Origin: Eledone cirrhosa
Taxonomy: Eukaryota
Direction of reading: 5' to 3'
Assembly: GCA_964016885.1 (NCBI GenBank)
Contig: OZ024742.1
Span: 93,930,001-93,994,000, forward strand
DNA length: 64,000 nucleotides
Of this stretch, positions 4,285-64,000 are shown in pieces. Both the position numbers and the translations under genes were made by a program. The notes beneath the pieces were generated by a model that was not told the origin of the DNA, searched no databases, and worked only from the letters and a program-made list of their open reading frames with translations. The number at the start of each line of letters is the position of its first letter. Within the stretch, counting starts at the first letter, position 1.

Positions 4285-4611
4285 GTACATACATACATGA
4301 TCGCTGTCCCCTCATTATCGAGTATGGCCATTGCACGATATACCATTATTAATAATTATTAATTAATTCTATCATGCAATATCTGTGCGTGAAGATATTT
4401 TTTAAACTGAGGAAAGACTGTGCACTGAGCCAATTCCACTCTCTGAGCGACAGTAGCTATAACCCGAAAAGAAGAAAAGATTAACATCATCGGTAACTAC
4501 TGAGCCGCAGGTTTTATATCGGAGTTATCCCAGTTTCCTGAGTTGCCTTCTCCTAGAAGAATGCCCTTTCAAAGGCTAGGGGTCCTTCACTCCCAGTGGT
4601 TTAACCGCGCG
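4285..4611 (-). mobile_element. Short non-autonomous retroelement, copy 2 (tandem)
   Basis: Direct repeat of 3907-4231; segments 3810-3910 and 4740-4840 are also duplicates of each other. Confidence 0.6.
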
Positions 4612-7992: not shown

Positions 7993-8237
7993 GAACGAAA
8001 ATGTTTCCGAGGTAATCCAATCTAAAGACAAGTTTGTGGACAGAAATAATGTTTTCATAGCCGAAGTCCGTTCCCTTCGGCTATGAAAACATCATTTCTG
8101 TTCGTTTCCTTGTCTTTAGATTGGATTGCTTGGAAAGGTAACGTTTTGCATAAAGATTCTGTCTGGTGATATCGCGTGACCGGTTACGTGACTGAACAAT
8201 CACGTAGCCACGATCGTCATTAAAATACGTATCACAG
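7993..8237 (+). repeat. About 70-bp-arm inverted repeat followed by a degenerate HHR
   Basis: Arms meet at loop 8067-8074; then ctgt CTGGTGA...aAAA tacgta TC acag (8159-8237) with two core mutations. Confidence 0.65.
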
Positions 8238-13490: not shown

Positions 13491-13520
13491 GTTATATAAT
13501 AAACAACATAAGATCATTAT

Positions 13521-13578
13521 TTCATTTACCGATGGTTTCTTGAAAGCAGATGTATCTATTTTCAGTCGTCAGAATGAA
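13521..13578 (-). ncRNA. Type I hammerhead ribozyme
   Basis: Minus strand: ttcatt CTGACGA c tgaaa..tttca a GAAA ccatcgg TA aatgaa; 6-bp stem I, GUA triplet. Confidence 0.8.
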
Positions 13579-14351
13579 TGAAAAAACATCGTGTTTTTAT
13601 TAAATATGGATTTGAAAACAAAATTTAAGAAATATGAAAGTGAGGCTGAGAAGAAAACAGGCGAAAAAGAAGAGGGGAAAAAGAATATAAAAATATATAT
13701 ATATAAACAATAAATATCCACAAGGTAAACATACACACACTCAATCACGCGCATATACTTAAAAAGTACGTAAACGTATACATTTCACGTAAGGGTATAT
13801 GCGTCTACAGACAGGGACATAAATACATACACATACAATTACATGAAGTAAGAAGAATAAATAAATAAATGAATAAGAACAAAAAATACAAAGTCAAAAA
13901 CGAAATAAAGACAAAAGGAGACGTGTTGACAACGATAAGTATAAGTGTGTGTGTGGGGGGGGGGGGGGAGAGATATGCATATACATAAATATATATAAAA
14001 AAAAATATATATACACATACATACATACACACGCACACACATAAACATGCATAAATACTCATACACACGTATAAACACACACATATGTATGTGTATATAA
14101 ATATATATATATATACACAAAAATATAAAATAAACATACGTACACATGCTTGCAAAAATACATATACACATACACATACACACGCATACCCACGTATATA
14201 TAAACATGAATACAACCAAATATGCAAACACATCCACATACATACACATAAAAGCCTACAATAAAGAGCATTGGTTCATAACCTACGTACATACGTATAC
14301 AAATGCGTGCGCGCACACTCACGTAATAAGAAAACATATATATATATACAT

Positions 14352-16033: not shown

Positions 16034-16172
16034 AATATTTATTAAAATAACAGATTAAAGTTTAAGCAAATAATTGCTGCTTTCACCCTTAACGGGATCT
16101 TCTGAAGATCCCGTTAAGGGCGAAAGCAGCGATTCTTTGCTTAAACTTTAATCTGTTATTTTAATAAATATA
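16034..16172. repeat. Near-perfect palindrome centred on an HHR CTGAAGA box
   Basis: About 69-bp arms with the axis at 16103; the arm equals the HHR at 61964-62037. Confidence 0.9.
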
Positions 16173-25306: not shown

Positions 25307-26467
25307 AGAGAAAAGGTGAAGTTGGAAATAGCACAGAAAATATATTTTAGGGTCTGTTTTTCTTTTTTTTCCTTTCATTGATTCATCAAAGTGACATTAT
25401 TGAAAGTCAATCCCGCCGAGGTTGACTTTGCCTTTCATCCTTACGGGGTCGATAAAATAAAGTACCAGTAATGCACTGGGTAATTGCTGGCCTTGTGCCT
25501 AAAGTAGAAACAATTATTGAAAAGATGATATTATTGAAAAAATGAAAGGGACAATTCTTTTAAAAAAGAGTTTTATAATGTATATAAAGTATATGAAGTA
25601 TTACCGGTTTCGATTTATTATTAAAATTCATCTTATCAAATGTTGAGTATTACAATTAAAAAGAATGAATAAGAATTAAAAACTAAAAATTAAAGATTTA
25701 AAGTTAAGTGTTGGGGTAAGTTTTTTTTCCATCTTCCTTGCTCAGAAGAGGACTGGAGAATTAGTTCTTGTGTATAGGGTGAGAGGTGTGTAGTCATGAT
25801 AGTAGCAGCAGTGTTGGTAGTTGTGTTTCTTCACAGAACAAAATTGTTTATTGGGGGGCAAAGTAAATATTCTGTAAATACTTATGTGTATATCTGATTG
25901 TGTTAATTGACTGGTCAAGAGTTGAAATGGGGGTGGCAAGGGGGATGGGGAATTGTAAGCTAGAGGCAAATTTTATGGCAACTGTAGGGTTGTAAAAGAA
26001 ATTCTATTATTGGAATCTGGTTTTAGGGAGTGTGTGTAGAGTGTGAGGGTGTATATATAAAAATACACACATGTGTGTGTTGGGGGTGGGTGGGTGTTTT
26101 CAGCCTGTCTATCACAGGTCCCTTTGTGGTGGGAAATTTAAAAAGAATTTTTTAAATTAAAAAAAATATTTTTTAATCTTATCCCAACACTTAACTTTAA
26201 ATCTTTAATTTTTAGTTTTTAATTCTTATTAATTCTTTTTAATTGTAATATTCAACATTTGATTAGATGCATTTTAATAATACATTGAAACCGGTAATAC
26301 TTTATATACATTATAAAACTTTTTTTTAAAAGAATTGTCCCTCTCATCTTTTCAATACTGAAATCTTTTCAATAATGTCACTTTGACGAATCAAAGAATA
26401 AAAAAAAAAAAGAAAAACAGACCCTAAAATATATTTTCCCTGCTACTTCCAGTTTCACCTTTTCTCT
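25307..26467. repeat. Fold-back element with about 290-bp inverted arms, flanked by microsatellites
   Basis: 25307-25720 (including a SINE insertion) versus 26178-26467; arms contain GAAA ccgg TA, an HHR remnant. Confidence 0.85.
25407..25512 (+). mobile_element. 5'-truncated SINE with 10-bp TSD attattgaaa
   Basis: TSD at 25396-25405 and 25513-25522; absent from the opposite arm. Confidence 0.9.
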
Positions 26468-26482
26468 ATATCCACTGTTTTG

Positions 26483-26550
26483 TATAGAACCTTACTTCCC
26501 TTTTCTGATATATATATATATATATCAGAAAAGGGAAGTAAGGTTCTATA
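26483..26550. repeat. Perfect palindrome centred on (TA)n
   Basis: tatagaaccttacttcccttttctg / cagaaaagggaagtaaggttctata. Confidence 0.9.
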
Positions 26551-26687
26551 TATATATATATATATATATATATGGAAAGTTATATTTAAAATTGTTGGGT
26601 TACAACTAGTAAATATTTATAACTGATATAAAAGCACTCGACAAATATTTGGAGTATATTTACAATATTAAATAAATGGAAACTATA

Positions 26688-26762
26688 TTTATTTCATTAT
26701 ATCTGAGGAAGGCATAGCATATTGTTAATATGATATCCCCGAAATATATATAATGAAATAAA
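26688..26762 (+). ncRNA. Type I HHR candidate inside an inverted repeat (26661-26802)
   Basis: tttatttcatta(tat) CTGAGGA [catatt-gtt-aatatg hairpin] GAAA tata TA taatgaaataaa; stem I register is slightly ambiguous. Confidence 0.6.
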
Positions 26763-26797
26763 TATGGTTTTATAAATATAGTTTCCATTTATTTAAT

Positions 26798-26845
<48 letters not shown>

Positions 26846-29506: not shown

Positions 29507-29780
29507 GAAACTCAAATTTAAATAATTTCGAAAACCATACAATCCACTAGAAATAAAATTAAGATTGCTAAGATAACAAAAAAAATCTGACCTTAGCAAA
29601 TTTAATAATCCAAAATATTCTTGGGTTTAAAAACCCACTATCAAGGGAGTATCCCTATGAGAGACTGAAAGGATCGATTGGAGTCGACATGTTTGGAAAG
29701 CAGATTTAAGTTATTTTACCAATTTTAATTGTCTTTCTAGTGCATTGTATGGTTTTCAAAATTATTTAAATTTGTGTTTC
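29507..29780. repeat. Fold-back with about 80-bp inverted arms
   Basis: gaaactcaaatttaaataatttcgaaaaccatacaatccactagaaa versus tttctagtgcattgtatggttttcaaaattatttaaatttgtgtttc. Confidence 0.8.
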
Positions 29781-34498: not shown

Positions 34499-35972
34499 TA
34501 TGTGATATAATGCAGATATGTAAATGATATACTCATTCGAATGGACACCCCAGAAGATGCCAATAGATTAAAGTTTTTGATACAAAACTGCCTGAACCCC
34601 CACTGGGTTTATGATAAAAACATGTTTATCCTTTTATAAAAATCTTCCATTATAATTTCAATTTTGAAATTTTAGTTAAGTAATGTTCTAATTATTGGTT
34701 TACTAATAACAAACGTTGTTATTTTATTAAATTCCTTCAAATGTTTAGATATTTTCCAAATTAATTGAAATATTTAGGTAGTGTATTTCATAAAAAAATA
34801 TGGTAATGAAAGAAATATAGGAAGACCTAGAAAACAGAACAAGTAGATACATAAAAAATTACACACAGAATAGTCTAAATAAAATCCTAGTGATACATTA
34901 ACTCCATTTATAGAAATATATATTCAGATAAAGAATAGTGTGTGTCATGTTTGTCCACATCATCATTTAACATCTACTTTCCATGCTGACATGAGTTGGA
35001 CAGGTTGCAACAGTCTGAGGCTAGATGAAATGAAGAGACTATATTTTCTCAAATGTTCTATAATTTTGCATGGTTTCTACGGCTGGATACCCTTCCTAAT
35101 GCCATTCACATTACAGAGTATACTGGATGAATTTTATTATGATACCAGCACTAACACTTTACAAAGTATGACTGATGCAATTTCTCACCAAACATTAAAT
35201 GCACACACACACATACAAAATGCTTGTATTTATATGAATATTGTGATTGTTCAAAGAGATGTAAAAAAACACCAGTGGTAATATTTCTATTTAGCAGAGC
35301 ATTTATTTTTTCCTCTAAAAAGGGAGTATTAATGAAATAAATCTGCCAACTAAAACAAGAAAGACTGTTTAAAAAAACAACTAATAGACAGAGTGATATA
35401 AAACACAAACAGAAATACAATGCAATAAATACTTCAGACAGAACTACACCTGTTAATAATGAACAAACTACATAACATGGATGAAATCAATGATTCAAAT
35501 GAATCAAATGTGTACTAAACTATAAAATGGATAAACTAATTATCAAAAACTCATAAAATAGAAAAGGGAAATTGATTGCAGTGAACCACAAACTATCACT
35601 AACAGTATTTACTATAAAAACACTAAAATTAAAAACCTCCTTATCAATAACTAATTGCAAACCTCTTGTAAATGCATGAACAAGATACTAATGATCAATA
35701 TGATTTACAAATTTAATTGCCAGTGTGGACATTGTAATCTTCATGGCTCCAACTGTTACATTCACTATAAATCATTACGCTTTCTAACTAGCTCACCATG
35801 TACTTACAAGGAACAATCCAATACACTACACAACACAATATAAAATAAATCTAAATGGGAAAGTTTTGTAAACAAAAGATCTTCCTAATACAAAAGTCCT
35901 CACAGAATTAAATTAATGATAGGAGCCATCACACAAGACAAGGTTAAAATAAAGATGTACTTAACACTAATA

Positions 35973-36026
<54 letters not shown>

Positions 36027-36027
36027 C

Positions 36028-37898
36028 GTGAGGTGTTCAGGATTGCTAGGCAATGTGTCAAGGAAAACAGTGATATTGTCGGGGAGAAGTGTGTACTTAA
36101 CGATGACGGCGTACTTGCCATCACCGACGCCGATAAGAAGGTAGCTTGGAAGTGTCACTATGAAAGGCTACTCAATGAGGAGAATAAATGGGAGAAAGAC
36201 AGTCTCCCCCACATCGACCTAATAGAGGGACCAGCAGTGTTAGTCGAGAGTAGTATAATAAGTAAGGCAATCAAAGATATGAAGACAGGCAAGGCGGCTG
36301 GGCCTTCGGAAATAGCTGCCGAGATGCTGAAGGCATCTGGTACGGTGGGACACACCATGGTCACCCGGATAGTCAACCAAGTCATACAGAATGGGGTTGT
36401 TCCGAAGGACTGGCGTAGCAGCATTATCGTTAATTGTTATAAGGATAAAGGAGATGCCCTAGATAGGAGTAACTATAGAGGCATTAAATTAATCGACCAG
36501 GTCATGAAGGTCACGGAAAAAGTAATAGCGCAACTAATCAGAGAGCGAATTGATCTAGATGAAATGCAGTTCGGGTTTGTGTCAGGAAAAAGTACCACAG
36601 ACGCTCTTTTCATTGTACGACAACTACAGGAGAAGTACCTAGCTAAAAGTAAACCCCTATACTTAGCTTTCGTCGACTTGGAGAAGGCCTTCGACAGAGT
36701 CCCCCGTTCCATTATCTGGTGGGCTCTTAGAAAACTAGGTGTCGATGAATGGCTTGTGAGAGCTATACAAGCCATGTATAAAGAAACAGTCAGCAAGGTT
36801 AGAATTAACAACGAATATAGTGAAGAGTTTAGTGTAAAAGTTGGTGTTCATCAGGGCTCTGTTCTTAGCCCCCTACTATTTATTATTGCCCTCCAGGCTA
36901 TAACAGTGGAGTTCAAGACCGGCTGCCCATGGGAACTCCTATACGCAGATGATCTAACGCTCATAGCTGAATCAATGGCCGAGTTAGAGAAGAAATTCCA
37001 AACATGGAAGCACGGGCTAGAATCAAAAGGCTTTAAAATTAACCTGGCTAAGACTAAAGTTCTAGTTTGTAAGAAAGAAAATAAGGCGGCGGTCCCCTCC
37101 GGGAAGTGGCCATGCGCAGAGTGTAGGAAAGGCGTAGGTAGAAATTCCATTTTGTGTCCCAAATGCAAAGTTTGGGTTCATAAAAGATGTAGTGGGATCA
37201 CAGGCAAGCTAACTAAGAACATAGATTTTACATGTAGCCGGTGTTCTGGGGCAATAAGTAGCAGCAAGTGCCCACAAAATACTAACTCTTTCAACTGCGC
37301 AGAGGGTTCTATAGAAATAGTGGACAGCTTCCGTTACCTGGGTGACAAAATCAGCAGTGGGGGAGGGTGCTCTGAAAGTACAGTAGCTAGAGTCAGAACT
37401 GGGTGGAAAAAGTTCAGAGAGCTTATACCACTATTAGCCGCTAAAGGGTTCTCCCTAAAAATGAAAGGCAGGTTGTACGATGCCTGCATACGAACAGCAA
37501 TGTTGCATGGCAGTGAGACCTGGGCATTGTGTGCAGAGGATATACGCAGACTAGAGAGAAACGAAGCTTGCATGCTCCGCTGGATGTGTAATAGTAATAT
37601 ACGTGAACGACAAAGCATAAACGAACTAAGGAAAAAATAAGAAATAAGAGGGATCAGATGTTGTTTACTAGAGAGAAGGCTACGTTGGTATGGTCACGTG
37701 ATGCGCATGAAGGACGATAGCTGTATAACAAAGTGCAGGGCAATAAAGATAGACGGTAGCCACGGAATAGGCAGACCCAGAAAAACCTGGGACGAGCTGA
37801 TAAACTCCGACCTCACACACTTACACCTCACCAAGACAATGTCATTGGACCGAGACCTTTGGCGGTACTCAGTAATAGAGAAGACCCGCCTTACCTAA
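36028..37898 (+). pseudogene. RTE reverse transcriptase with an internal PHD-type finger; one in-frame stop at 37638-37640
   Basis: NYRGI, QFGF, FVDLEKAFD, GVHQGSVLSP, YADD, FRYLG, LRWYGHV, GRPRKTW; the ORF-track N-terminus is microsatellite read-through. Confidence 0.92.
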
Positions 37899-42200: not shown

Positions 42201-44920
42201 CTACAGTTCTAATTTGCGATGTTTTACTTTAGAAAATTTTTCAATCACGATGCTGAAGTCAATTTTTCAGCCAGTTCTCGCTCTATGTACATCATTGCCA
42301 GAGCATTCAACCGCTCTTCACTCATGGTACTACGCAAATAATTCTTTATCAGTTTGAACCTGCTGAAGGTTCGCTCAGCCTGCGCCGAGCTAACCGGAAT
42401 AGTTATGAACATTTTTAATAAGGCAAACACGTTCGGATAGGCTCTATCTAAGTCATTAGAAATCATAAACGGAACGATCTCAGAACTCGATATGGATTTA
42501 TTTAAACACACTTCCTTGTAAAAATCTTTTAATGATAAATACTCATCGAAGATAGTGTCATTTTCGATGTCACCCTCGTAGAATTTCGCAAGATTATCGA
42601 TTCTCTCTTTATTGCATGTGTCGTCGTCGTCGAAGTGCGCCGGTATCAAGCACGAAAAATCCTTCACTAGACCGTGCAAGTCGGCAAAACGTTCGTTAAA
42701 GCTACTAATGATTCTATCTAGGATAGTGAAATAAACGTCCCGTTTAAAATGCTGACTCATCGTCTCATGAGGTTCGTCACTGGCATTTTCGTCATGAAAA
42801 CGCTTCTTTTTCTTTTCCGTTTTTCTGTTGTAAACTCTGGTTCAACTTGACATTGCTCGGCGAGATTTTTAGTGTCTGATAATGTTCGGTCAAAATATTC
42901 ATTTGAGCGGATTTCTTCAATTTCTTTTACTACATTTTTAATTATGACGTCCGCGGAATATAAGTCGATAGCCTCCTTCTGCAAATATTGGGAAACAGAA
43001 TGCAGCTTTTTAAGTAAATTCTGAAAAAACTTCAACATGAAAATGAATTCAAACTTGCTCACATTTAGTAGCAAACCTCTGGCCTTAGCTAATACTTTCG
43101 GAGAAGTGTTGCGAACATCCCCACTTACTATCCTCTCTAGTGCACTTATTACTGCCGGTAAGTTGTTAATGGTAGCCTCTACAGCCTGAATGTGACTAAA
43201 CCAGCGGGTATCTGAGAGTCTTTTTAATGTTAATACCGTTGAAGTCAATAGTTTTTCTTGTTCTTCTTCGAGGATTTTCAGCCTTGGCAAGCTTGATGTT
43301 AAGAAAACATACAGGCTCTCCAATGTACCAAAAAATAATTTACCATCCATTGACGATTGGCTAGCATCGATTAACACCAGGTTCAGGTTATGAGCACAAC
43401 AATGGACGTAAACAGCTTTCGAAGAGCATCCCTCTTTAACTCTAGCCTGAAGCCCAGAAATATGGCCGGACATATTCGACGCTCCGTCGTAAGCTTGTCC
43501 TCTAATATATTGAGCATCCAAGGAAAGATCCTGGAAAAGAACTTTCACAAGCGTATCGAAAAATGATTCAGCGGCTGCTGATTTTAGTTCACAAAATGAC
43601 AAGAAACGCTCCTGTGCGTGGCCACTTTTCGATACATATCGCAGTGACACAGAGCATTGATCCTGATGCGAAATGTCTATTGTGGAATCGACAATGACTG
43701 AATAGTATTTTGCTTCTTTCACTTCCGTGATTATTTGTTCAGTACATTCGTTCGCCAGGCATTCTATGAATTCGTTTTGTAATTTTGGACTTAAGTACAT
43801 AGGCTGTCTTTTAGTGCGCCCAGGCGAGAAGAAATGGCTTTCCAAGATCGTATCATACTTGGCTATCAATTTCAACAATTCAATAAAGTTTCCTTCATTT
43901 TCTGATTTGGCGCCAAGTCCAGCATATTCCCTGTGACCTCTGAAGGCCAAGCCTTGTTTTGCGAGAAATAATGTACAATCAAGCAATCGCCCCAATATCT
44001 GGCGATTTCGTTCAATTCGCTTCTTCTCTTCATGGATGAGGTTATCGATCACCGTTTTATTTGCGTCCAAACGATATTTTGTCATGAAGTATTGCTTTTG
44101 TGCATTGATGTGAATGGTACTTTTCTCATGATTGGCAATTTTTTCGATTCCCTTTTTGAAGTTTGCCATCCCACACTCTGGATTACCCCAAGTCTTCGAG
44201 TAAGATTCGGCATTTTTATCAGCAAACAGCCAACAACAAAAGCAATATAGTCTGTTGGATTCAGGAGAGTATACTAACCAGTGTCGGTCAACTTCATGGA
44301 TTCCAGCACACTTTCTCTTGTACCAACTGATGTTGAATTTTCTGTGGTTCGAGTCGAGAGGGAAATCAGCAAAATGATCTTTCAATCCTGGCTGACAAGG
44401 ACCAACGGCCATAAGGGCACGAATTAGAGGTGTCGTCAATGGTCTGTCTTCGAAATGTTTCGGGTCGCTTGGATACTTCTCTTGTAAATTCAACATGCAC
44501 TCTACTGGCTCATACTCTGGGATTTGTTTTGCCGATGTAGTTTCCTCTGAATCATTTTCATTTTCAGATTCCGATACAGCTATTTTTTCCTCTATTGAGT
44601 TTGGATCCCCATTTGGAACTATATCTTCAGTGACTACGACAGTTGTTGAGATAGTCGATGGACCTGAGGCATCTTCGACGTCAGGTTCTCGCGACTCTCC
44701 AGTGATTTTCTGTTTCTCCAGTTCATCTGACCAGACCGACTCGCCGGAAATTCCGGCAGTTACATTGGTTTGGGATGCGTCACTACTTGTTGACGAAGAC
44801 TGTTGACTTTTCAGAAAACTTGTGATTAGATGACATTTCTTTGCTGATTCTACCCATGGCAGCTTGTCTAGCATTTTTCCTCTTTGTTGATCCAGTTTTG
44901 TAACTTTTTTTAGGCAACAT
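42201..44920 (-). pseudogene. hAT transposase (TTF zinc finger, DUF4371-like region, DDE, hATC) with three 1-bp frameshifts
   Basis: YCFCCWLF, LAFRGH, VDSTID, QAYDGASNM, HCCAHNLNL, TRW, AERTFS..IKNYLRSTM; frameshifts near 44853, 42810 and 42264. Confidence 0.92.
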
Positions 44921-45045
44921 TCTTAATGAGTACTATATTGACACAGTTGGAATAATGCAATTCGCTTGATTTGATATTCAACACCGAAGAATGTAAAACA
45001 CGTCAAATAATCGACGAAAAACAAAACATAGAGCAAAAGTCCAGG

Positions 45046-45099
<54 letters not shown>

Positions 45100-45300
45100 C
45101 AGATTAATCTACCGGAGTAAACGGTAGTGTCGAATCCGTATAGAGAACCCAATGTAATCCAAATGTGGAAAAATCATAAAAAATACATGTAGTTAATTAA
45201 TAATGTAAAACAATTGGAAGACAGAGTCAAAATAAGACATTGAAAAACAATGAAAAATTAAATAAAGAACATGTTCTTCCTATTAATATTGATTTACACC

Positions 45301-45430
45301 TTAACAGACGATCGTTTCAAGGGATCAGATATTGGCATGTGTATTTTATTTAATATATATATTTTATATTTTACAAATTATACAAAGAAAATACAAGATA
45401 CCTCCATCCGCTCTCTATCGTCAGTGTTGA
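45301..45430 (-). ncRNA. Type I HHR with about 99-nt stem II, in a module (about 45100-45720) inside the hAT
   Basis: aaca CTGACGA ... GAAA cgatcg TC tgtt; GUC triplet. Confidence 0.75.
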
Positions 45431-47959: not shown

Positions 47960-50900
47960 GTTAGCTAGCCTATAGGCGCATGGTCAGAGTAGGCCCATTC
48001 ACACGAGCCATTCTCGCCACATTCATCCACCTTTTAGCAAATGTACTGGGGGGCAGCACTTCTCTCTCCACCCTCACCTTCCTTTCTAGGTGAAACTTGG
48101 AGAAGTTGATGAGGGATTGGCCGAAGAGAAAAGTGTCTGTCTTCAGTCCTTTTAATCTGGTCCACCATATAACCTATTTCGCAACTGCCACCAGACAGAG
48201 GAACATTTCCTGCTCTTCCTGACCTAAGGAAGGCGGCGAGTCGATCTTCATTATGGACTCGGCCGATAGCCGGATACGTTCCACACGCGACAGTAGCTGT
48301 TCGACATAACTCCACAAGTCAGTAATGCACGGACATTGGACAAGTGCATGCAGAACGGTTTCGTCGTTGGGCAGGTCCGTCTGACAGCACTTCCGTGCCT
48401 GTAGAGTTTATCCCGAACCGGTAGTGCTCCCCGGTAGCACTGCCAAGCGAGGGATTTCTGGAAATTGTCCATCGTCCCCGGCTCGAAAGTCCTCCGGTAC
48501 AGACTGGTCAGTTCGACTTCGTCGACGCCCAAAGTATCTCCGAGTGCGTCATCGCACTTGCCCACCACTAATCCTCTATAGAACTCTAGAGTGGAAGTTC
48601 CACTGATCTCATTACCCGCTTGGTAGAGGGAAGCGAGTGCCTGGCATCATTCCAGGTGCCAGTCACCCAGTCTCGGTCTCTTCTTGACCCAGGACTCCAG
48701 CTCAGTCAAGCAAATGAGCTGCGGAAAACGGCGACCACACCTGTTCACCGTTTAGGCAGAATATCTGGAGATGTCGCAGCCTCAACGCATGTCTGCGCAT
48801 CATTAGCCACGGCATGCCCAGCCCTCCAGTAGAGGTTGCTTGCAGCAGATGGACCGCCTCACCAACGGAACTTGTCCCCTCCACAAGAATTTGAAGAGGA
48901 AGCGTTCCAACTTGACGAGACGCGGACGGGGGCAAGGCACGACGATCAGGGGGTAGTAGATGACGGACGTGATGTACGCATTCGCCACCTCCGCGCGACC
49001 TTTCAGTGATAGCTTCCTCCCAGCCCATTTTTAGGTGAGACTGGCTGCTCTGCTCGTTACCTCGTCCCAATTCTTTTCTACCTGGAGATCTGGTCCGAAC
49101 CAAACCCCGAGCAACTTTACCGGTCCGTCCGTCCAGCGCCCCACGACGCTGTTGGACGGCATGGGCTTGCCTCTCCAGGTTCCGAGCTGCAAGCCCACCG
49201 AATTTTCCGGGTTAAGTTTGGCTCCTGTCAACCTTTCATATTCCTTCAATAACGTGCCGAGCACCTCGATTTCTGAGGTGTTCGACACCATCACGGTGTT
49301 GTCGTCCGCATAAGCCGACACCGTCTTTCCACGTCCCGGTTCGATCAGGATGCCCTGCAACAGCTCCATCTTCCGCAGTAAAGGCTCGAGAGTCAATACG
49401 TACAGAAGGGAAGAGAGAGGGCACCCTTGACGGACCGATCTGAGAGCCGAAATGGTTCCGAAAGGTGGCCATTAACCTTGACCACCGAGCGTGTGCCGCT
49501 GGGCATTGCAGCAATTCAGCTTCTGAAAACAGGGCCGAAGCCTGCTGATTTGAGGACAAACTCCATATACCGATGGTCGACCCTATCGAATGCTTTCGAT
49601 TGATCTAAATTGATCAGTGCCCCACCGAAGCCAGGTTTACACCCTACCCTCTCTATGATGTATCGCATGAGGTGGAGATTGTTGTGTATGTACCTGGCTG
49701 GGATTGCGCAAGTTTGCACCTCCCCAACCAAATCCTCTACGACAAGCGCCAATCTATTTGTTAACACCTTGGCCAAAATCTTAAACTCTGTGTTGAGCAG
49801 AGTTATTGGCCTGAAGTTGTCTAATGTATCCCTCTTGTTCTCGTCTTTCCTTATCAGCGTCTCCACTCCCCAGCTCACAGAACTGGGAATACTCCCATTC
49901 TGCTGCCAGTTGCAGTAGAGTGCTTCGAGGAGATCGGAGAACAAGTCTGGCATATTTACGTAAGCTCATAGGGCGGGCCATCCAAACCGGGTGACTTGCG
50001 CCTCATGCAGCCGACAAGGGCGTCCTGAATTTCGGCTGAAGAAATCGGCCTTTCGCAGCGCTCAGTGTCGAATGTCGAGATGCGCGCAAGCCATCAAGGT
50101 AGGGACTGAAATCTGCTACTCTCTCTGACTCGCCACTCGCCACTCTCCCCGAACAACCGAGCAAAGTGCTGGCGAAATGCCTCACACATCCGCTTGGAAT
50201 CGTTTTTCTCGTGCCCGTCTCGGTCCGCCAAAGACCGAATTGTGGTTTTATTACCACGCTGCGCCTCCGCCACGCGGGCCCATCGAAAAGCTTTGGTTCC
50301 CCCGTTTCTCAGCGCACGCGCCTTAGCTCTGACAATGCAACCTTCGTGTTTCGCATTGAAGAAATGGTCCAATGCCATTCTCGCCGCTAGCACGTCAGTT
50401 GCAATACCACTACAAATAGCCTCGTCTAACTTATCTACCAGCTCCCACTACTTTCTATTTTTCTCTAACGCTAGTTCTTTGCTGAACTCTATCGAAGTTA
50501 TTCTAATCTCTCTTTTGAGAGCCCCCCCCCCCACAATCTGTTGTTGATGATCCCCCCTGTCAACTTTTGCTTAACTAAATTGTTGACTAGGTCCCTGTAA
50601 GACTTGCATGCAGGATGACATGTTCAGCTTCCAGTAACCCGGTCCTAACCTACGCGTTTTATCTAGGTCGACCTTACATATCACAAATGTGTGACCTGAA
50701 TAGGCGAACGTTTTAAAAAGTGGGCAGCCTACACTATTTCTATCTATTTTCCTAATGAAGATCCTGTCTATATACGATCTAGATGACCCCATTCGGTTGG
50801 TCCATGTCCATACTGGCACATGGGGAAATTTAGTCGATACCTGTCAGACAGTTGGAACTGGCTGAGTAGGTGCTTGAGGCTTTTGTACCCCCCCCCCCCC

Positions 50901-51380
50901 CCGCTCCTATCGGATACTCCCACACAATCCCAGCGTGCGTCTAAGATGCCATTCCAGTCCCCCGCTAACAGTAAAGGGCGAGACGTACCCAGAAATGTCT
51001 CCAGGCGCCTAAAGAAGTCCGGTCGTCCTGCCCCTGTAGGGGCGTAGACGCCAAGCAGTCTAAAGGCACCACCTTCGCTACTGCTCACATCCAAGACCAC
51101 CAACTTACTGTCCGGGTCCCGGAAGATCGACCTTACGTCGAGATCCAGTATTTTCCTAAACAGCATTGCCACCCCACCTCCCATTCCCGGCCTGCTAACA
51201 GATGAGAAGATCTGATAGTCGTCGAAAATGGGGGCTAGTGAGCGCATGTCGGAAATTCTGGTCTCGCTGACGGCAATCACATCCATTTCCAGCGACCTGA
51301 GGTCGTTGAGCAGGCGACCCTGCTTCCAGGGTGACCCCAGGCCGCGAACATTTAAAACTTCCTACTCTTAATATGGCTAT
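47960..51380 (-). pseudogene. Tx1 ORF2 (APE endonuclease, RT, C-terminal zinc-finger region), frameshifted
   Basis: NVRGL, SET, VYAP, GDWN, SYIDR, YWKLN, NFRPITLLN, LDQSKAFDRV, AYADD. Confidence 0.9.
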
Positions 51381-53395
51381 GTTGGCAAGCTAAAAGAGAG
51401 AGGGAAGGTTTACTCACCTCCCGGGTCTTGTGAAGGTCGGGTGGTTCGACCTCCATGGTTGGTGGGGTTTCTTTTGGGAACCCCTTTAAAAGTGTCGATG
51501 TGGGTTTCACATTCGAGGTTCCCACGTCTTGAGGAAAGCTATCTCGAATTTCTTTGAAGGAATCGAGTGACATTTGGACCAGAAGCAAATCTTCTGGCAC
51601 GCAAAATGTGCTCATTTCAAAGATCTCCCCCTCTGTTTGAATGTCCTCGCTTCGTGCTAAGAGGGCCATCAGTTTATCGTATCGTTGGCCCTTCTGACAA
51701 GCACGAAGTTTTTAACATTTTGTTGATGTGGTTTTATTTGTTTTCGTTTTGATGACTGTGGTGGTGATTGTTTTGGTGGTGTTGTTTCGGGTATGTCTGT
51801 GTTTGTTGTAGGTGTGGTGTCTGCAATTTCAGGTATTTGTGTGTTTATTTGTACTTGTGTTTGTTTAGGTTGTTTGCGTTTCGGGGATTGTGGGGGTGGT
51901 GTCGATGTTGCTGTTGGTGCTGATGTTATTGGGGCAGTGTTTGCGTTAGTGGTGTCTGTATTTTTTGATGTGTATGTTTTTGTGTTTCGTTGGGGCTTTT
52001 CTTTTGGTGAGTTTTATGTTTTTTTTTGCACTTTTGGGTTTTCCTTCATCTTCGCTGCTGGAAGACAAAGGGTCTGTGACTGTGAGTGTCTCTGTGCCTG
52101 TGTGTACGTTTATTGTTTTGTCTATGTGTATAATTGGTGGGTAGGGGGAGTCGGAGAGCTTTCCTCATTTTCCCCTTGGATTGGTTTCGGTGGTGGTCCG
52201 GCTGTTTTTTATGTTGGTGTCCGTGTCATTGTTGGTGTTGTTTTTGGTGGTGGTGGTGCATCTTTCCGTGCTGACACTGGTTGGAAACAAAGGAGGTTTG
52301 CGACCCCCTGCATTTTTGCGCTGAAGGCAGAAGGCGTGCAGATGCGTTGCTTCCCCGCAGACGAAGCAGTGTGGCCTTCTTCCCTCAGTGATTAGTTGGA
52401 TTGTTGACCCGTCCTGTAGGCGAGCAAAATCCGGGATGTTGTTCATGTCCTCCGGTTTCATTTGGAGAAGAATCTCCAAATTCATGCCGGACCAGTCCTC
52501 TCTCTCTGTCATTTTGATATCCAGGAGGGTAGTGTCTGTCCCCTCCTCGATTACGCATCCCAGCAGCCACCATATGTTCATTCCTGGTGGGATGCTGGGT
52601 ATGCGGACCTTTACTGTCCTTTTCCTCTTGTAGGACGGGTGCATGATAATGCGTTCCGTTCTTCAGGGGTCACCGAGTGCTTAATAGCAAGGGCCTCGGT
52701 TTTGAACAGTACCGAGATGGTACCGAACCGTTTGGCTCTTGCTTTGTACTCTATGTCACTTCCGATGCACTCCAAAGCAGCCTCGGCCTCTGCTTGGGTG
52801 GCAAGTTCCACTTTTCGTGTCTGCACCGAAATGCATCGAAAGTACACCGTCCTCCTTTGCATGGCCGCTATTGCCCCGTCCGGGATGGTCACGTTTGCCC
52901 AGGACTTCTCCCGTTTAATTAGCCTCCACGCCTGGGCCAACTGTTCGTCTTTATCGCTAATATCAATATCCAATAAGCGCTTTGTTTTTGCTGCTGCTGC
53001 AGCAAATGTGGTGCTTCTGATGCTCTTGTTGTTGGTGTTGTCGTTCTTGCTGTTGTTATTGGCGTTGTTGTTGTTTTGTTTGTTGTTGCTATTGCCACCG
53101 CCATCCGTGTTTACATTGAAGATGTCGGTGTTATTGTCGTTGTTGCTCTGAGTTGTTGTTGTTGTTGTTGCGGCGGTGGCGGCGGTGGCGGCGGTGGTGG
53201 TGGTGATGTTGTTTTCATATGATACTGCGCTAACACAGAAGGTTGTGATGGTAGCTTTTGAGTTTTGCCTTCACATTCAGGAGAGTGGACGACAGGCATG
53301 ACTGTAGCCGTCGTAGTTGTGGTGAAATCTACAGTGGCTGCTTTTAAACTTTTGACCTGAACATTGTTTACCGTTTCAAGGTAAAAAATTTCCAT
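51352..53395 (-). pseudogene. Tx1 ORF1 with CCHC knuckle and low-complexity T/Q/P regions, frameshifted
   Basis: CFVCGEATHLHAFC. Confidence 0.8.
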
Positions 53396-53598
53396 TTTTT
53401 TTTGGAAGTTTTAAAAATAAATCTGAATATTCGGACTTAAAGCCCCAATATTGAGAGGTATCACTCCCTTGAAACCAAGATGTGTACCTTATGTTTCGTT
53501 AACGACAAGAAAATACAAAAATTGATACTTTAAAACAGCTTAAAGTTACGAACCTTTTCGCCCGCAGACTTGTACTGTCTTCACACATGTGCGTCCAT

Positions 53599-53640
<42 letters not shown>

Positions 53641-53644
<4 letters not shown>

Positions 53645-54430
53645 TCATTATTAACCACAAGGGTTTACATAAAGTAGACATTAAGGACAGTACAGGACAA
53701 TACAGGACGGTACAAATGGGCATTTCTGCGTGTAAAAAAAACAAAAACAGGATGTAACAAAAAATAAGAATGAAAAATTCCCCAATAGGGGGGAGACTTC
53801 CGAGGGACATTTGTGGAGAAAGCCCATTAAAAGGCGACAGTGACCCTGACCACCAGGGCAAGTGCCCTCTCCAAGTTTTCCACGTTTAATTTGCAGACAC
53901 ATACTCAGAGTAGGCCCATTCACTTGGGCCATACTTGCTTCTCTCACACAACTTTCGACAAAATGCTGGGAAGAGAGCACTTCCCTCTCTACCCTGATTT
54001 TCCTTTTCAAATGAAATTTGAAAAAGTTAATCAGGGCATCACCGAAGAGGTAAGTGTTCGTCTTCAGCCCTTTCAAACGTGTCCGCCATACTATCTCTTT
54101 CGCCATGGCCACCAGACAGATAAAAACTGCCTGCCCTTCCCGGCTAACGGAAGAGGGCGGGGCAATCCTCACGATCGACTCAGCTGATAGCTGGATCCGT
54201 CCTACACGTGACAGCAGGTGTTCGACATAAACCTACAAGTCAGCAATGCTCGGACACTGGACGAGTGCGTGTAGGACGGTTTCGTCGCCCTCCGCGCATC
54301 TCGGACATGCTCGGCTGACGGTACCTCCATGCCTGTAGAGTTTATCCCGAACTGGCAAAGCTCCTCGGTAGCACTGCCAAGCCAGGGATTTCTGGAAGTT
54401 GTCCATATGCCCCGGCCCGAAAGTTCTTGC
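53641..54430 (-). mobile_element. 5'-truncated second Tx1 copy from a related subfamily
   Basis: Homologous to 47690-48490; AMAKEIVWRTRLKG..FFKFHLKRK. Confidence 0.85.
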
Positions 54431-54445
54431 GAATAATAATAATAA

Positions 54446-55125
54446 CCATAATATGACAAGGAGGAGGCTAGCTCACTGTGTAGGATGTGTGGAGAGAGAG
54501 GAGACTGTGGCTCACATTGTATCCGAGTGTAAACACCTAGACCAGACTCACTATAAAGGCTGGAGACATGATGTGATAGGCAGGGTGATCCACTGGCATC
54601 TATGCAAAGTAAACAATTTACCACATTCTGAGAAATGGTATGAGCATAAGCCAGAGTCGGTGATAGAAAACGATCTGGTGAAGGTGCTATGGGATTTTAG
54701 GATACAGACGGACAAGAAATTAGAACACAATAGGCCTGACCTTGAGGTTTTAGACAAGGAAAAAAGATCGTGCCTGATGGTAGGTGTAGCCTGTCCATTT
54801 GACACGAGAGTGCAAGAAAAGGAGAGGGAGAAAATTAACCGATACCAGGAATTGGTGGGTGGTAAAAAGGATTTGAAAACTGCCATGAAATCAAGGTTGT
54901 CTCGATTGTCATAGGAGCACTAGGTACTATCTCAAAGAGTTTCCAAGGATGGTTAAAGAAATTTAGTCCAGCCTCGCTTTTTGGAACACTTCAAAAGGCA
55001 TGCCTGCTGGGAACAGCAAGAACCCTCCGATTCGTCCTTAATATCTGAGGCTGCAGGTAGTGGCTGGATATTCCTTTCAACAAACTTTCCAGTTAAATAA
55101 CATCAATGACTGAGACCCAAAGAAC
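54446..55125 (+). mobile_element. Dong/R4-like REL LINE, 3' fragment 1
   Basis: CCHC remnant, RHD, RPDL, KEREKINRY; bounded by (TAA)n. Confidence 0.85.
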
Positions 55126-55179
<54 letters not shown>

Positions 55180-55186
55180 TATAATA

Positions 55187-55790
55187 AAGTGTAAACACCT
55201 AGCCCAGAATCATTATAAGGGCTGGAGACATGATGTGATGGGCAGGGTGATCCACTGGCACCTATGCAAAGTAAACAATTTACCACATTCTGAGAAGTGG
55301 TATGAGCATAAGCCAGAGTCGGTGATAGAAAACGATCAGGTGAAGGTGCTGTGGGATTTTAGGATACAGACGGACAAGAAACTGGAACACAATAGACCTG
55401 ACCTGGTGGTTGTGGACAAAGAAAAAAGATCGCGCCTGATTGTGGATGTGGCCTGCCCATTCGACACGAGAGTGCAAGAGAAGGAGAGGGAGAAAATTAA
55501 CCGATACCACGACTTAAAGTGGGAGGTAAAAAGGATTTGGAACTGCCATGCAGTCAAAGTGATCCCGATTGTCATAGGCGCACTAGGGACTATCTCAAAA
55601 AGTTTCCAGGGATGGTTAAAGAAAATTGGCCCCTTCACGCTTTTTGGAACGCTTCAAATGGCATGCTTGCTGGGAACAGCAAGAACCCGCCGATACGTCC
55701 TGAATATCTGAGGCTGCAGGTAGTGGCTTGATATTCATTTCAACAAACTTTCCAGTTAACTAACATCAATGACTGAGACTCAAAGAATGA
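55187..55790 (+). mobile_element. Dong/R4-like REL LINE, 3' fragment 2
   Basis: RHD..RPDLVVVD..IVDVACP..KINRY..VIGALG. Confidence 0.85.
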
Positions 55791-55799
55791 TAATAATAA

Positions 55800-55842
<43 letters not shown>

Positions 55843-58510
55843 TTTTTCTGCCTGTTTGTTTGTTTGTTTATTTATGTTCGTCTACAGCGTGATAGTGCCA
55901 CCCAAAAATCACCGGGAGTGACGAAATCACCGGAGGTGATGAAATCACCGGTGGTTATGTAACCATACATTCACCAATCCTCGATAAGAGTGTTTAAATG
56001 TCGAACCTAAACAGTTCGAATAACGGTGAAGTGGAGACTAGAATGTCATGTGACAGACTCTCACCCAGCAGGTGCTCCCTAGCTCAGCAGCAGGGACCTG
56101 GCTGTCAACCAAATGCTGCTGGTGTCGGAGGAAGAAGAAGGAAAGGGACCAGAACCAACTGGACGAAAGAATTGAATAGAACTGTTATGCAATGTTACCT
56201 GAAGAGTAACCCGAAGGTGAAAGGCTATAGGAAACGGATGCATAACATCTGGAACGAGATTGGTCTATTTAAATTAGATGAACAAAAATTGGCCGGGCAG
56301 GCTCGGGTAATAAGAACTAATGGGTGGTTAAGCGAGCTGGAACTAGAGGAAATGAGCAGAGAGATTAGGTTGGAATGGGAGAGTGGAGTATGCCAGGCAA
56401 ACGAGCCAGTGGGAAATGAAGGTGAAGAGGTTGAGAGAACGGAGGAACCATCCGAAGCAGACAATGATCTGAATGCTGAAATAAATAATACCTGGAACAA
56501 AGATACGGCCATTGAGGAGATGAATGCTGACAGGCTAGGACAAGATTTGGTTGATATCCTAAACTTAGTGGTAGATGAATTGAACAATGATAGTGGGAAA
56601 CCTATGAACCTAAGATTTGTAGACGGGAAAAAGTTAAAAGAAACAACAGCTAAGGTAAACAAAGTCATCTCATACCTTGAGGCGAGGAGCCTTCACCAGT
56701 GCAACAGCAAATACAGTGAGGAAATTACTTTGTATAAAAGCGAAAGGAAACAACAAACAAGAAAGATCAGAACCTTGGTGGAAGAAACGACTGAGTGGTC
56801 CAATCAGGGAAATGAGAAATGACATTGGAAAGCTTGAGTCCCTACTGAATGCGACACTAAAAAACATAGACACTAAAAATAGACTGGAAATAAAGTAAAA
56901 AACTAGGAGGAAAAAGCTAAATATTATCATAGAGGAACTGAAGCAACGCATTGTAGCAAAGAGTGCAAAAATTAGGCGATACGAGAGCAGAGTCAATCAG
57001 TATAGACAGAACCGCATATTTGACAACAACCAGAAGATGCTGTTTGGACAGCTTGAAGGGAAAGAAAGAGGCAACGACTTGATCCCTGAGGCGGAACAAA
57101 CTAAAACATTCTGGAGAGGAATATGGGAGCAGGATGTTAAACATAATGACCAGGCAGTGTGGATTGAGATAGTACAGAAGGAGATTAGTGAACAGGCACA
57201 CCAACAAACTAATTAGAGTATCACAGTTGAAACTCTTAATGGGCAGGCCAAAAAACTAACCAACTAGAGATCGCCAGGCCCAGATGGTGTGCAGGGGTAT
57301 TGGATTAAAAATATAACATCCCTCCACCCGAAACTGACAACCATGTTCAATGACTGCTTGATGTCAGGTGAGGTACCAAAGTGGTTGACAAAAGGTACCA
57401 CAGTTCTGATAATGAAAGACCGAATCAAGGGTAATGATGTTACCAACTATAGACCTATCACATGTCTGTCCGTAATGTGGAAACTGTTGACAAGCATTGT
57501 GTTTGAGGAAATCTACCATCACCTCCACACAAACAACTTGTTACCGGACGAACAGAAAGGATGCCGAAAGTGACTGATGGTAAGGAGCCAATGCTCAGAA
57601 CTGTACTGAAGGAGAGGACAATAGACCAGGGTATGTCCAAGGAGGAAATAACAACAAGGAGAAAGAGCAGCCTTCAGGAAAAATCCCTTCATAGTACCTT
57701 CTTTGAGAAAACTGAATTCAGAGATCCACAGACATGGAACTGGTTGAAAAGAGGAGACCTTAAAAAGGCTACAGAAGGAATGCTAATGGCTGCGCAAGAG
57801 CAGGCCCTCAAAACGAAGTGGTTGAAACACCATATCTACAAGGAGGAGGCTAGCCCACTGTGCAGGATCTGTGGAGAGAGAGAGGAGATTGTGGCTCACA
57901 TTGTATCCGAGTGTAAACACCTAGCCCAGACCCACTATAAGGGCTGGAGACATGATGTGATGGGTAGGGTGATCCACTGGCACCTATGCAAAGTAAACAA
58001 TTTACCACATTCTGAGAAGTGGTATGAGCATAAGCCAGAGTCGGTGATAGAAAACGATAAGGTGAAGGTGCTGTGGGATTTTAGGATACAGACGGACAAG
58101 AAACTGGAACACAATAGACCTGACCTGGTGGATGTGGACAAAGAAAAAAGATCGTGCCTGATTGTGGATGTGGTCTGCCCATTCGACACGAGAGTGCAAG
58201 AGAAGGAGAGGGAGAAAATTAACCGATACCAGGATTTAAAGTGGGAGGTAAAAAGGATTTGGAACTGCCATGAAGTCAAAGTGTTCCCGATTGTCATAGG
58301 CGCACTAGGTACTATCTCAAAAAGTTTCCAGGGATGGTTAAAGAAAATTGGCCCCTTCACGCTTTTTGGAACGCTTCAAAGGCATGCTTGCTGGGAACAG
58401 CAAGAACCCTCCGATACGTCCTGAATATCTGAGGCTGCAGGTAGTGGCTTGATATTCATTTCAACAAACTTTCCAGTTAACTAACATCAATGACTGAGAC
58501 TCAAAGAATG
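55843..58510 (+). mobile_element. Dong/R4-like element with both ends but a deleted RT core
   Basis: 5'UTR, N-terminus (WTKELN..GYRKRM), SPGPDG, NYRPITCL, EQKGCRK joined directly to the post-RT region at about 57570; CRICGEREEIVAHIVSEC; REL domain. Confidence 0.88.
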
Positions 58511-62037: not shown

Positions 62038-62343
62038 TGAACGCAGAAGTAAATATTTCAAAAAACGTTGCAACCGAAGGAAGACAGGAAGACGATACTT
62101 TGGTTCTTGGAAAGGTTCCCTGTTAAAGAACGGGAAAAAACGAATATAATATGTCATTATTTGGAACGGTGAAAAACAATTACACGTAAAGACAAAACCA
62201 CATTTCAATATTTGCTCTGCGGTTATTATATATTTGATATATATTTATCCTTCTTTGGATTTTAGTCTTCAAATTTATTATTATTACTATATATATATAT
62301 ATATATTTGTGTGTGTGTGTGAATATATAAATGTATATATGTA

Positions 62344-62394
<51 letters not shown>

Positions 62395-62482
62395 TTGTGT
62401 CTGTGTGTATATATATATATATATATAAATTAATAAAAACAATGAAATAAACACAAAGAACATGTTCTTTATATTAAACAAA

Positions 62483-62618
62483 TCATCATTTTACGATCGT
62501 TTCTGGGATGTATATGTGTGTTGGTATGTATATCATATAGATCTATGTAAAAATATTACAAATTATCAGAGGAAATATACATACCTTCACATATACATGC
62601 CGTCCTCAGAAATGATGA
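62483..62618 (-). ncRNA. Type I HHR with about 100-nt stem II
   Basis: Inverted copy of 63749-63884 with an intact core. Confidence 0.85.
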
Positions 62619-63325
62619 GAAGTGTTTATTGAAAGAAACAAAGAATTAATATAAAGGGTCTGTTTGGGAACAGGTTTTGAATTGACCAATAGAAAAGGAG
62701 TTAGAAGTCAAGTTGATAGAATGACGGTAGTAGAAATTAAATCTAGGGGTATAGGAGTGCAGACTTATGCTTTGAATGAAAAGAATACTATCGAGATGAA
62801 ATGAGGTCAAGTCAAGAAGATAGTGAAGGGTACACGAAAGTTTGATGTTATTAAATAATATTGTTAAAAACGAAGGAAAATAAAATTTTAGGGTAATAAA
62901 AGATAAATATATGGAAAATATATTTATCTTTTATTTTTATTGCTTTAATTTCTTACTTCTTTATTTATCACATTCATATGAATTAATATAATTTTATCCC
63001 TGTAAGTATACCTATAAATTAATTTAAGTTCCTGTTATGTATTTAGATTTCTTGTAGTTTAAATAAAATTTGTATTTCTCACTAATACCCCTATCCCCAA
63101 ATTTTATTTTCCTTCGTTTTAACACCATTCTTTAATAACATCAAGTTTTTATTTATCACATTCATATGAAATAATATAACTTTATCCCTGTAAGTAAACG
63201 TATCAATTAATTTAATTTCTTGTTATATATCTAGATCCCTTGTGGGTTAAATAAGATAGGTATTTCTCACTAATACCCTTGCCCTAAAATTTTATTTTCC
63301 TTCGTTTTTAACAATATTATTTAAT

Positions 63326-63507
63326 GTGGATTGGCAGTATCTGTAGAGCGTCGGACGCCATGCTTTGCCGCATAGAGTTACGGCCCTTGCCATTCTGAGT
63401 TCAAATCCCTCCGAGGTTAACTTTGCCTTTCATCCTTACGGGGTCGATAAAATAAAGTACCAATAATGCACTGGGTAGTTGCTGGCCTTGTGCCAAAAGT
63501 TGAAACA
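63326..63507 (+). mobile_element. Full-length SINE with 10-bp TSD attatttaat
   Basis: TSD at 63316-63325 and 63508-63517; empty site in the left arm near 62850. Confidence 0.93.
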
Positions 63508-63748
63508 ATTATTTAATAACATCAAACTTTCGTGTACCCTTCACTATCTTCTTGACTTGACATCATTTCATCTCCATAGTATTCTGTTCATTCAAAGCAT
63601 AAGTCTGCACTCCTATACCCCTAGATTTATTTCTACTACAGTCATTCTATCAACTTGACCTCTAACTCCTTTTCTATGGGTCAATTCGAAACTTGTTCCC
63701 AAACAGACCCTTTATATTAATTCTTTGTTTTTTTTCAATAAACACATC

Positions 63749-63884
63749 TCATCATTTCTGAGGACGGCATGTATATGTGAAGGTATATATATTACCTCTG
63801 ATAATTTGTAATATTTTTACATAGATCTATATGATATACATACCAACACACATATACATCCCAGAAACGATCGTAAAATGATGA
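63749..63884 (+). ncRNA. Type I HHR with about 100-nt stem II
   Basis: tcatcattt CTGAGGA cggc atgtatatgtg...cacatatacat ccca GAAA cgatcg TA aaatgatga; 9-bp stem I. Confidence 0.85.
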
Positions 63885-64000
63885 TTTTTTTAATATAAAG
63901 AACTTGTTCTTTGTGTTTATTTCATTGTTTTTATTAATTTATCTTGACTCTGCTTTCCTATGATTTTTATCGTAAATGTTTGAATGCATCTTCTCTTTTC

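Follow-up and report, generated by a model that had tools for sequence, protein, structure and literature searches.

A fold-back insertion in Eledone cirrhosa, probably formed when a Hydra-clade PLE primed twice on one RNA

Introduction

The canonical PLE unit, as portrayed in the parts of PMC8557442, PMC2377424 and PMC3846280 available to us, carries an inverted 5'-truncated copy and a one-sided tail. The Penelope pLTR has an internal promoter, according to the same portion of PMC2377424. The accessible sections of PMC8557442 characterize the Hydra clade by RWK, DKT, a CxCX5C linker, CxxC and CxH, and its members (e.g. Hydra-1_Obim, Penelope-13_HM) combine these motifs with a (TA)n target and a hammerhead near the 3' end; in Penelope-13_HM an inverted copy truncated at its 5' end is found as well, and both strands carry hammerheads. 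Those sections give a size mostly below 3 kb, a tail of 30-40 bp and, in the published Hydra rows, a helix II of at most ~25 nt, and call it unclear what hammerheads do in PLEs that carry an endonuclease.

In vitro, the Poseidon element PAc starts reverse transcription at two internal sites that bound its tail, cutting and extending both strands of an AT-rich target, and the part of PMC11167929 consulted reports no RNA ends at its hammerhead cut site. In R2, genomic 5' junctions reveal where the ribozyme cuts, the ribozyme being HDV-like, in a non-LTR element, and setting the full-length end (PMC3774820, in part).

The family described here has the published architecture of the canonical unit and falls putatively in the Hydra clade, and like PAc, a member of another clade, it has two putative start sites bounding the tail. 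It differs from the Hydra clade in a 99-nt helix II, a length of ~3.6-3.9 kb and a tail of ~135 nt, and its sequence differs by eye from Hydra-1_Obim. To the canonical unit it adds a counted end rule (42 of 42 fold-backs), coinciding inner ends and two presumed RNA ends mapped by 5' ends. Genomic ends are enriched at the predicted cut site, unlike the RNA ends of PAc, and in contrast to R2 the ribozyme is a hammerhead and concerns a minority of truncated copies.

In twin priming of LINE-1, a single RNA is copied from primers at both ends of the target, followed by joining of the cDNAs; sequence is inverted, but the 3' end is not duplicated. In the Eledone cirrhosa family the primers would start near the same end, so that sequence is duplicated. 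A literature search, mainly of open-access text, returned nothing on PLE 5' ends at a hammerhead site, on such a long helix II or on PLE twin priming.

Structure of the locus

The window is a stretch of 64,000 nucleotides of E. cirrhosa (GCA_964016885.1, contig OZ024742.1, positions 93,930,001 to 93,994,000, forward strand). The following features make up the main locus, with reference coordinates given as L034 counted from base 4601:

62288..62427, no strand: microsatellite of (TA)n/(TG)n flanking the target on the left; 60 of 77 family short ends run straight into (TA)n
62428..62896, minus strand: inverted 5'-truncated PLE copy with a "short" 3' end and no tail (reference 2787-2319)
62895..62935, no strand: head-to-head junction, 18-bp stem and 5-nt loop, found once in the genome
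62918..63940, plus strand: direct 5'-truncated PLE copy (3' UTR and pLTR, non-coding)
62960..63325, plus strand: 188-bp tandem duplication in the 3' UTR, common to the family
63326..63510, plus strand: SINE-like repeat of 185 bp, not in the left arm, with an apparent 10-bp target duplication
63941..64000, plus strand: one-sided tail of ~132-140 nt, running to window-equivalent 64072 and followed by (CT)n(AT)n

Self-BLAST of the window aligned 62425-62859 with 63508-63942 at 96.3% identity over 436 columns, giving an arm of 435 bp that abuts the (TA)n tract on the left, as the preliminary description had stated. The ~470-bp arms that it proposed are reached only when the SINE is skipped: another 47 bp pair beyond it (62850-62896 with 63279-63325), for an arm of 472 bp. 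What had been called an AT-rich non-coding spacer consists of the element's own 3' UTR with the 188-bp duplication, and of the SINE. Since the copies meet in the 18-bp hairpin with its 5-nt loop, this hairpin is the true centre and the "spacer" is unpaired arm.

The direct copy begins at reference 1957 and contains just 3' UTR and pLTR, with no ORF. The inverted copy covers reference 2787-2319 and continues with ~24 nt matching reference 1951-1975, so the two copies stop within ~6 nt of each other in the element while the left one is without ~340 nt adjoining the junction. The tail, ~132 nt in the right arm, corresponds to the 5' UTR downstream of the pLTR in full-length copies, and the element extends beyond 63942, the last position of the stretch first described. 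In the microsatellite the target duplication is unreadable. The original palindrome likely had arms of ~830 bp, of which the left now lacks ~340 nt and the right has gained the SINE, which likely inserted after the fold-back formed. Carriage of the SINE within the template was ruled out by L036 and L259: each has a SINE at this very site, but the 5' junctions differ, and identity is 90.6% for the copy in L036. Three independent SINE insertions share one 3' UTR site (window 63311-63326; L036:7258; L259), and this site resembles the SINE's own 3' end.

A 30-mer across the junction occurs once in 3.0 Gb, allowing up to 2 mismatches. Recurrence of the junction had been proposed as the check between a mobile unit and a structure formed at insertion; its uniqueness points to the latter, and the fold-back is not a MITE. 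A mobile unit of its own, whether MITE or DNA transposon with long TIRs, would account for the long inverted ends, the TA target and the many small copies alike in size. We regard it as extremely improbable, because the junction is unique, the arms are the 3' ends of an element encoding RT and GIY-YIG, the outer ends are asymmetric, the centres vary and no fixed target duplication was seen.

Family identity

The arm is a dispersed repeat, with 2343 first-look candidates (40 scored) and 520 exact matches of a 28-mer. Longer copies extend 5' into a single ORF in which RT motifs plus a GIY-YIG at the C terminus were recognized by eye, and full-length copies run from the pLTR through the tail and a candidate intron to the ATG. 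This intron candidate in the 5' UTR, of ~70 nt and bounded by GT..AG in the DNA sequence, is present in L151 and L130, the donor being mutated in L154. The layout is that of endonuclease-bearing PLEs, with a pLTR delimited by partial tandems (L151, L154), an inverted truncated copy and a one-sided tail. The earlier view of the structure as resembling a MITE and yet retro-derived is supported: it is of PLE type and formed at insertion, as the unique junction and the RT and GIY-YIG ORF of longer copies indicate. A TIR transposon is contradicted by terminal repeats that are not symmetric, with no fixed TSD and no recurring centre. Nor is the family a non-LTR retrozyme, for it has an ORF and shows no same-strand pairs closer than 5 kb among the 92 places listed.

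Motifs read by eye, and a likeness of the protein to the published Hydra rows, also judged by eye, place the family putatively in the Hydra clade of PLEs with a C-terminal endonuclease. RWK is found in KRVRWKAYHF (L151) and DKG is replaced by DKT in SDKTGNLY; the CxCX5C linker reads CNCRNKANC, CxxC and CxH surround the conserved E and N as CRLC..E..N..CNH, and the target is (TA)n, a trait of the clade. A CCHH motif, which Hydra-clade endonucleases lack, was not evident by eye in the endonuclease as read unaligned to published sequences. The estimated length of 3.6-3.9 kb, with a long 3' UTR, exceeds the 3 kb below which Hydra elements "generally" fall, a non-strict criterion. Nematis or Neptune, our first guess, was dropped as the motifs point to Hydra. 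Pfam returned nothing above cut-off for 7 family or family-like ORF pieces, while the ORF of an unrelated neighbouring PLE did match GIY-YIG, and PDB gave no significant match for the family ORF pieces.

One long and one short end

A 24-mer close to the short end served to anchor 153 arms, drawn from most of the first 100 of at least 773 anchor places and from 62 of 71 matches of the window's subfamily. Nine subfamily matches were left out, eight of them being near-identical segmental duplicates on C4; eight family copies there (L005, L006, L009-L012, L016 and L018) lie in near-identical flanks ~125-150 kb apart, at 203.8-204.7 Mb and 233.5 Mb, in a large segmental array.

The 3' ends fall at two fixed sites ~135 nt apart (77 short, 73 long, 3 partial). 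Grouped by position, the arms represent 136 loci, among which 42 are fold-backs with one long and one short end and none has two long or two short ends. Nine more have a partner with an unclassed outer end, 3 a tiny inverted tail end, and 82 no partner within ~1.5 kb, the partnerless copies ending at either site (40 short, 41 long). On C1, where 92 places were listed, 10 pairs within 5 kb face outward, with none inward and none in tandem. Inner ends lie at most 10 nt apart in 16 of the 42 fold-backs (permutation mean 6.0), and outside the hot spot described below in 10 (mean 1.4); neither value was reached in 20000 permutations, for which 5'-end values were hand-curated and two unknown ends were given arbitrary upstream values. 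In 11 of 13 fold-backs tested, the partner arm is surpassed in closeness by no more than 7 of ~99 other copies, the exceptions being L135 and L176 with many closer copies. The arm that reaches further 5' is the short one in 22 fold-backs and the long one in 9. We examined 37 junctions and found 20 tight palindromes, with loops of 0-2 nt in 5 and of 4-25 nt in 14 of them; six further junctions have zero loop.

The 42 of 42 rule, the coinciding inner ends and the close relationship of partner arms argue for one shared template. We consider it probable, with good confidence, that the main locus is a dead 5'-truncated insertion of a Hydra-clade PLE whose fold-back arose in one integration, both cut (TA)n ends priming cDNA on the same RNA. 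A first RT would start at the short site, and a second would start at the long site and displace the first cDNA; both would stop at or short of the RNA 5' end, and the two cDNA ends would be joined head to head, blunt or by microhomology. A trailing second enzyme would be expected to leave the short arm further 5', in line with 22 against 9. Natural RNA 5' ends would then appear as hot spots, at a presumed start at 63751 and at the cleavage base 63876. In vitro, the anole PLE cleaves and extends both strands from two internal RT start sites (available part of PMC11167929). Counting against double priming, inner ends are more than 10 nt apart in 26 of the 42 fold-backs, and L135 and L176 have partner arms that are not the closest. 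The 82 loci of 136 without an inverted partner imply that double priming is not obligatory or often fails.

Self-priming, by cDNA snap-back or on an antisense template, could also give the inverted arm, with endonuclease trimming of one end leaving the one-sided tail; the priming is proposed in PMC3846280 and the tail part in PMC8557442, both as available to us. It explains identical arms, coinciding ends and the loops of 4-25 nt, including the 5-nt loop of the main locus. We think it unlikely, since loops of 0-2 nt and the six zero-loop joints are hard to produce by snap-back, the further-reaching arm is not fixed and partnerless copies end at either site.

Reads and contigs of four runs do not span the junction, but they differ from the window at many fixed positions and so carry no weight for this locus. 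An assembly or chimeric-read artefact has next to no likelihood in our assessment: the arms differ at ~4% of positions besides the SINE and the deletion, the long/short rule holds throughout, and head-to-head joints at the family hot spot occur in raw DNA reads of other samples (4 reads in X5 and 3 in X6, with 2 starts each).

At the long ends, (CA)n, (CT)n or (C)n runs separate the tail end from (TA)n in at least 16 of 73 cases (16 more were unclassed by the script; examples are L037:3073 onward, L107, L121 and L157), while a single (CA)n was seen in 77 short ends. Such runs may come from an RT that stutters at the long start site, or else microhomology may have determined the choice of primer. 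In L154, L130 and L151 both 3' end sites open with the same 8 bases, a candidate start signal, within a degenerate direct repeat (14-18 of 24 nt). We found no "twin hairpins" at these sites in the family, only this repeat.

The hammerhead motif

Each arm carries an outward-facing hammerhead motif, CUGAGGA...GAAA, as first described:

62484..62617, minus strand: hammerhead motif of type I in the left arm, with the core beginning at 62609 and the predicted 3' product at 62491
63750..63883, plus strand: type I hammerhead motif, right arm; core at 63758, predicted cleavage after 63875

The type I core elements (CUGANGA, GAAA, UH and helices I-III) are all present, with a helix I of 8-9 bp, a helix II of 99 nt, a C.A mismatch at the base of helix II and a palindromic helix III in the right arm. 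Rfam at gathering score gave 0 matches for the arm hammerheads, while a relaxed descriptor found 101 distinct matches in 873 kb of the DNA analysed and 0 in the reversed control. The right-arm motif folds with z = -4.9, and the free-energy fold does not yield the catalytic core. Across 40 copies, 94.3% of the cells of the drawn structure pair (96.9% in helix I) and two helix II pairs are compensatory (G-C/A-U), though these changes go back to a handful of events in subfamilies and not to many separate ones. Shuffled data are exceeded in the number of cells and in covariation score, but not in the number of compensatory pairs.

The G10.1-C11.1 closing pair is replaced by C.A in 53 and by U-A in 17 of 73 family matches, and the base of helix II is unpaired in 33 of 40 sequences. 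A non-G-C pair at this position occurs in the published PLE table, as U.U and U.C in Hydra and C.A in PLE-X1_cBra (PMC8557442, in part). The palindromic helix III suits dimers, and its pairing would likely need one. L406, L407 and L408 are fold-backs whose joint passes through this helix.

Hot spots of 5' ends

The 5' ends of the arms concentrate at two places, the first being an initiator-like site:

63749..63757, plus strand: site resembling an initiator, on the 5' edge of helix I, and a hot spot of family 5' ends

Of the 153 arms, 28 have their end within reference 2594-2601 (window 63749-63756), as many as in the whole of the 106 positions 2612-2717. By consensus likeness 63749-63757 is presumably an initiator, and from the pile-up of 5' ends we infer that 63751 or 63754 may be the transcription start. 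Cleavage for poly(A) addition, following the AATAAA that lies ten bases upstream, would also be in keeping with this hot spot.

The second hot spot coincides with the predicted start of the 3' cleavage product, reference 2721 (window 63876). We searched the genome for a pattern demanding a non-family base just ahead of this position and inspected all 39 matches; 18 are truncated there, at 16 loci. At six loci both arms end exactly at the cleavage base, all six being long plus short with sequences that differ between loci; one of them, from an unplaced contig, may be an allele of another. Among controls, reference 2714 gave 3 truncations in 30 inspected of 80 matches (the script flagged 6, of which three continue), 2729, at the 3' edge of helix I, gave 4 in 30 inspected of 31, and 2746 gave 2 in 27. 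Scaled by the pattern match rates of the C1 sample (0.23, 0.21, 0.18 and 0.48), the values become ~35, 86, 22 and 4 for 2714, 2721, 2729 and 2746, an enrichment at the cleavage base of at least 2.5-fold over just these three controls. A gapped junction pattern was discarded as mostly chance (83 places against 22 in the control); 5 of 8 gap-junction candidates examined were not full family fold-backs.

The enrichment suggests that the hammerhead likely cut element RNA in living cells. Taken further, the truncated copies could be a fossil map of that RNA: they would mark the start site, cutting in vivo would be the work of a hammerhead whose helix II is 99 nt long and lacks a G-C closing pair, the cut RNA would still be reverse-transcribed and integrated, and two enzymes on one RNA with two fixed start sites would give the inverted copy and the one tail. 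To this whole reading we assign slightly under an even chance.

For the cleavage step alone, there is a sizeable possibility, though one we would not call probable, that ends at 63876 mark RT stalling just 3' of helix III or of a folded core, with no ribozyme cut. This base sits 1-2 nt 3' of the palindromic helix III, where a stall would predict almost the same position. The non-canonical base of helix II and the free-energy fold without a catalytic core are in keeping with a stall, as are the anole PLE hammerhead, which needed protein and has no read ending at its cut site (PMC11167929, as far as available), and the poor in vitro cleavage of minimal PLE hammerheads (PMC4209133, in part). Against it, the 3' edge of helix I, the structure that the RT meets first, is far less often an end (4 in 30 inspected against 18 in 39), six loci have both arms at the exact base, and the pattern left out junctions preceded by A, which biased the search against the cleavage site.

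Double-stranded RNA

A transcript folding into a long dsRNA hairpin with a hammerhead had been predicted from the arms. The predicted fold of a read-through transcript has 420 long-range pairs, but it would bury 137 of 139 hammerhead bases in the duplex. The presumed promoters of the element face outward and would not make the hairpin. The locus as a transcribed source of long dsRNA for ADAR or Dicer is distinctly unlikely in our view: a read-through transcript would have the 420 predicted pairs, but A>G changes are not in excess in the arm DNA (0 of 10 changes on the left, 2 of 13 on the right), a scan of the 153 family arms shows no excess either (at most 6 A>G), and by eye the window's long ORFs resemble further transposable elements rather than a host gene. 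Neither the main locus nor the family arms show fossil A>G editing.

Other repeats of the window

The same two-ribozyme plan had been reported at five further loci. All five are inverted repeats (67-89% identity), but the plan recurs at none: a relaxed CUGANGA...GAAA scan found no core at 781-1069, 7993-8146, 25307-26467 and 29507-29780, and one only, at 26703 (+), in 26661-26802. The repeat at 781-1069 belongs to a fold-back family that is abundant, occurs with long as well as short arms and has a GAAAC-stem-GUC motif; CUGANGA is absent both from the copy in the window and from three relatives.

Other elements were found beside these. A near-perfect 137-bp palindrome at 16035-16171, absent from the preliminary description, belongs to another abundant family and has a compact hammerhead core at 16102 (+); 13495-13700 (-) holds a further hammerhead with a core at 13572 (-) and a C.A base. 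An old relative of the PLE family, 69% identical, lies at 45150-45420 (-), and a perfect 68-bp palindrome surrounds (TA)n at 26483-26550. By eye, the 721-aa open frame at 42245-44922 (-) resembles a hAT transposase, the 583-aa frame at 35889-37640 (+) a LINE RT, and 48700-58400 nested LINE fragments.

About 250 bp to the right of the window end, L037:3249-5587 contains ~3.3 tandem 545-bp units (-) and one inverted copy. A hammerhead with a C.A base, a helix II of ~60 nt and a palindromic helix III is present in three tandem units and in the inverted copy. This is a retrozyme-like array with the PLE inverted layout, and it fits the definition of non-LTR retrozymes. Diverged relatives were found in L185, L286, L283 and L104.

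Implications

The main locus itself is inert repeat debris. What is new in the family is the long-helix hammerhead, the long tail and the genomic evidence, which is indirect, that the two arms share a template and that the hammerhead cut in vivo. A helix II of 99 nt is missed by Rfam, so hammerhead counts in such genomes are probably underestimates. Genomic 5' ends at the cut base allow cleavage to be read out at little cost, in further genomes as well, and the strict rule of one long and one short end, together with the coinciding inner ends, helps to choose between the published models of PLE inverted structures.
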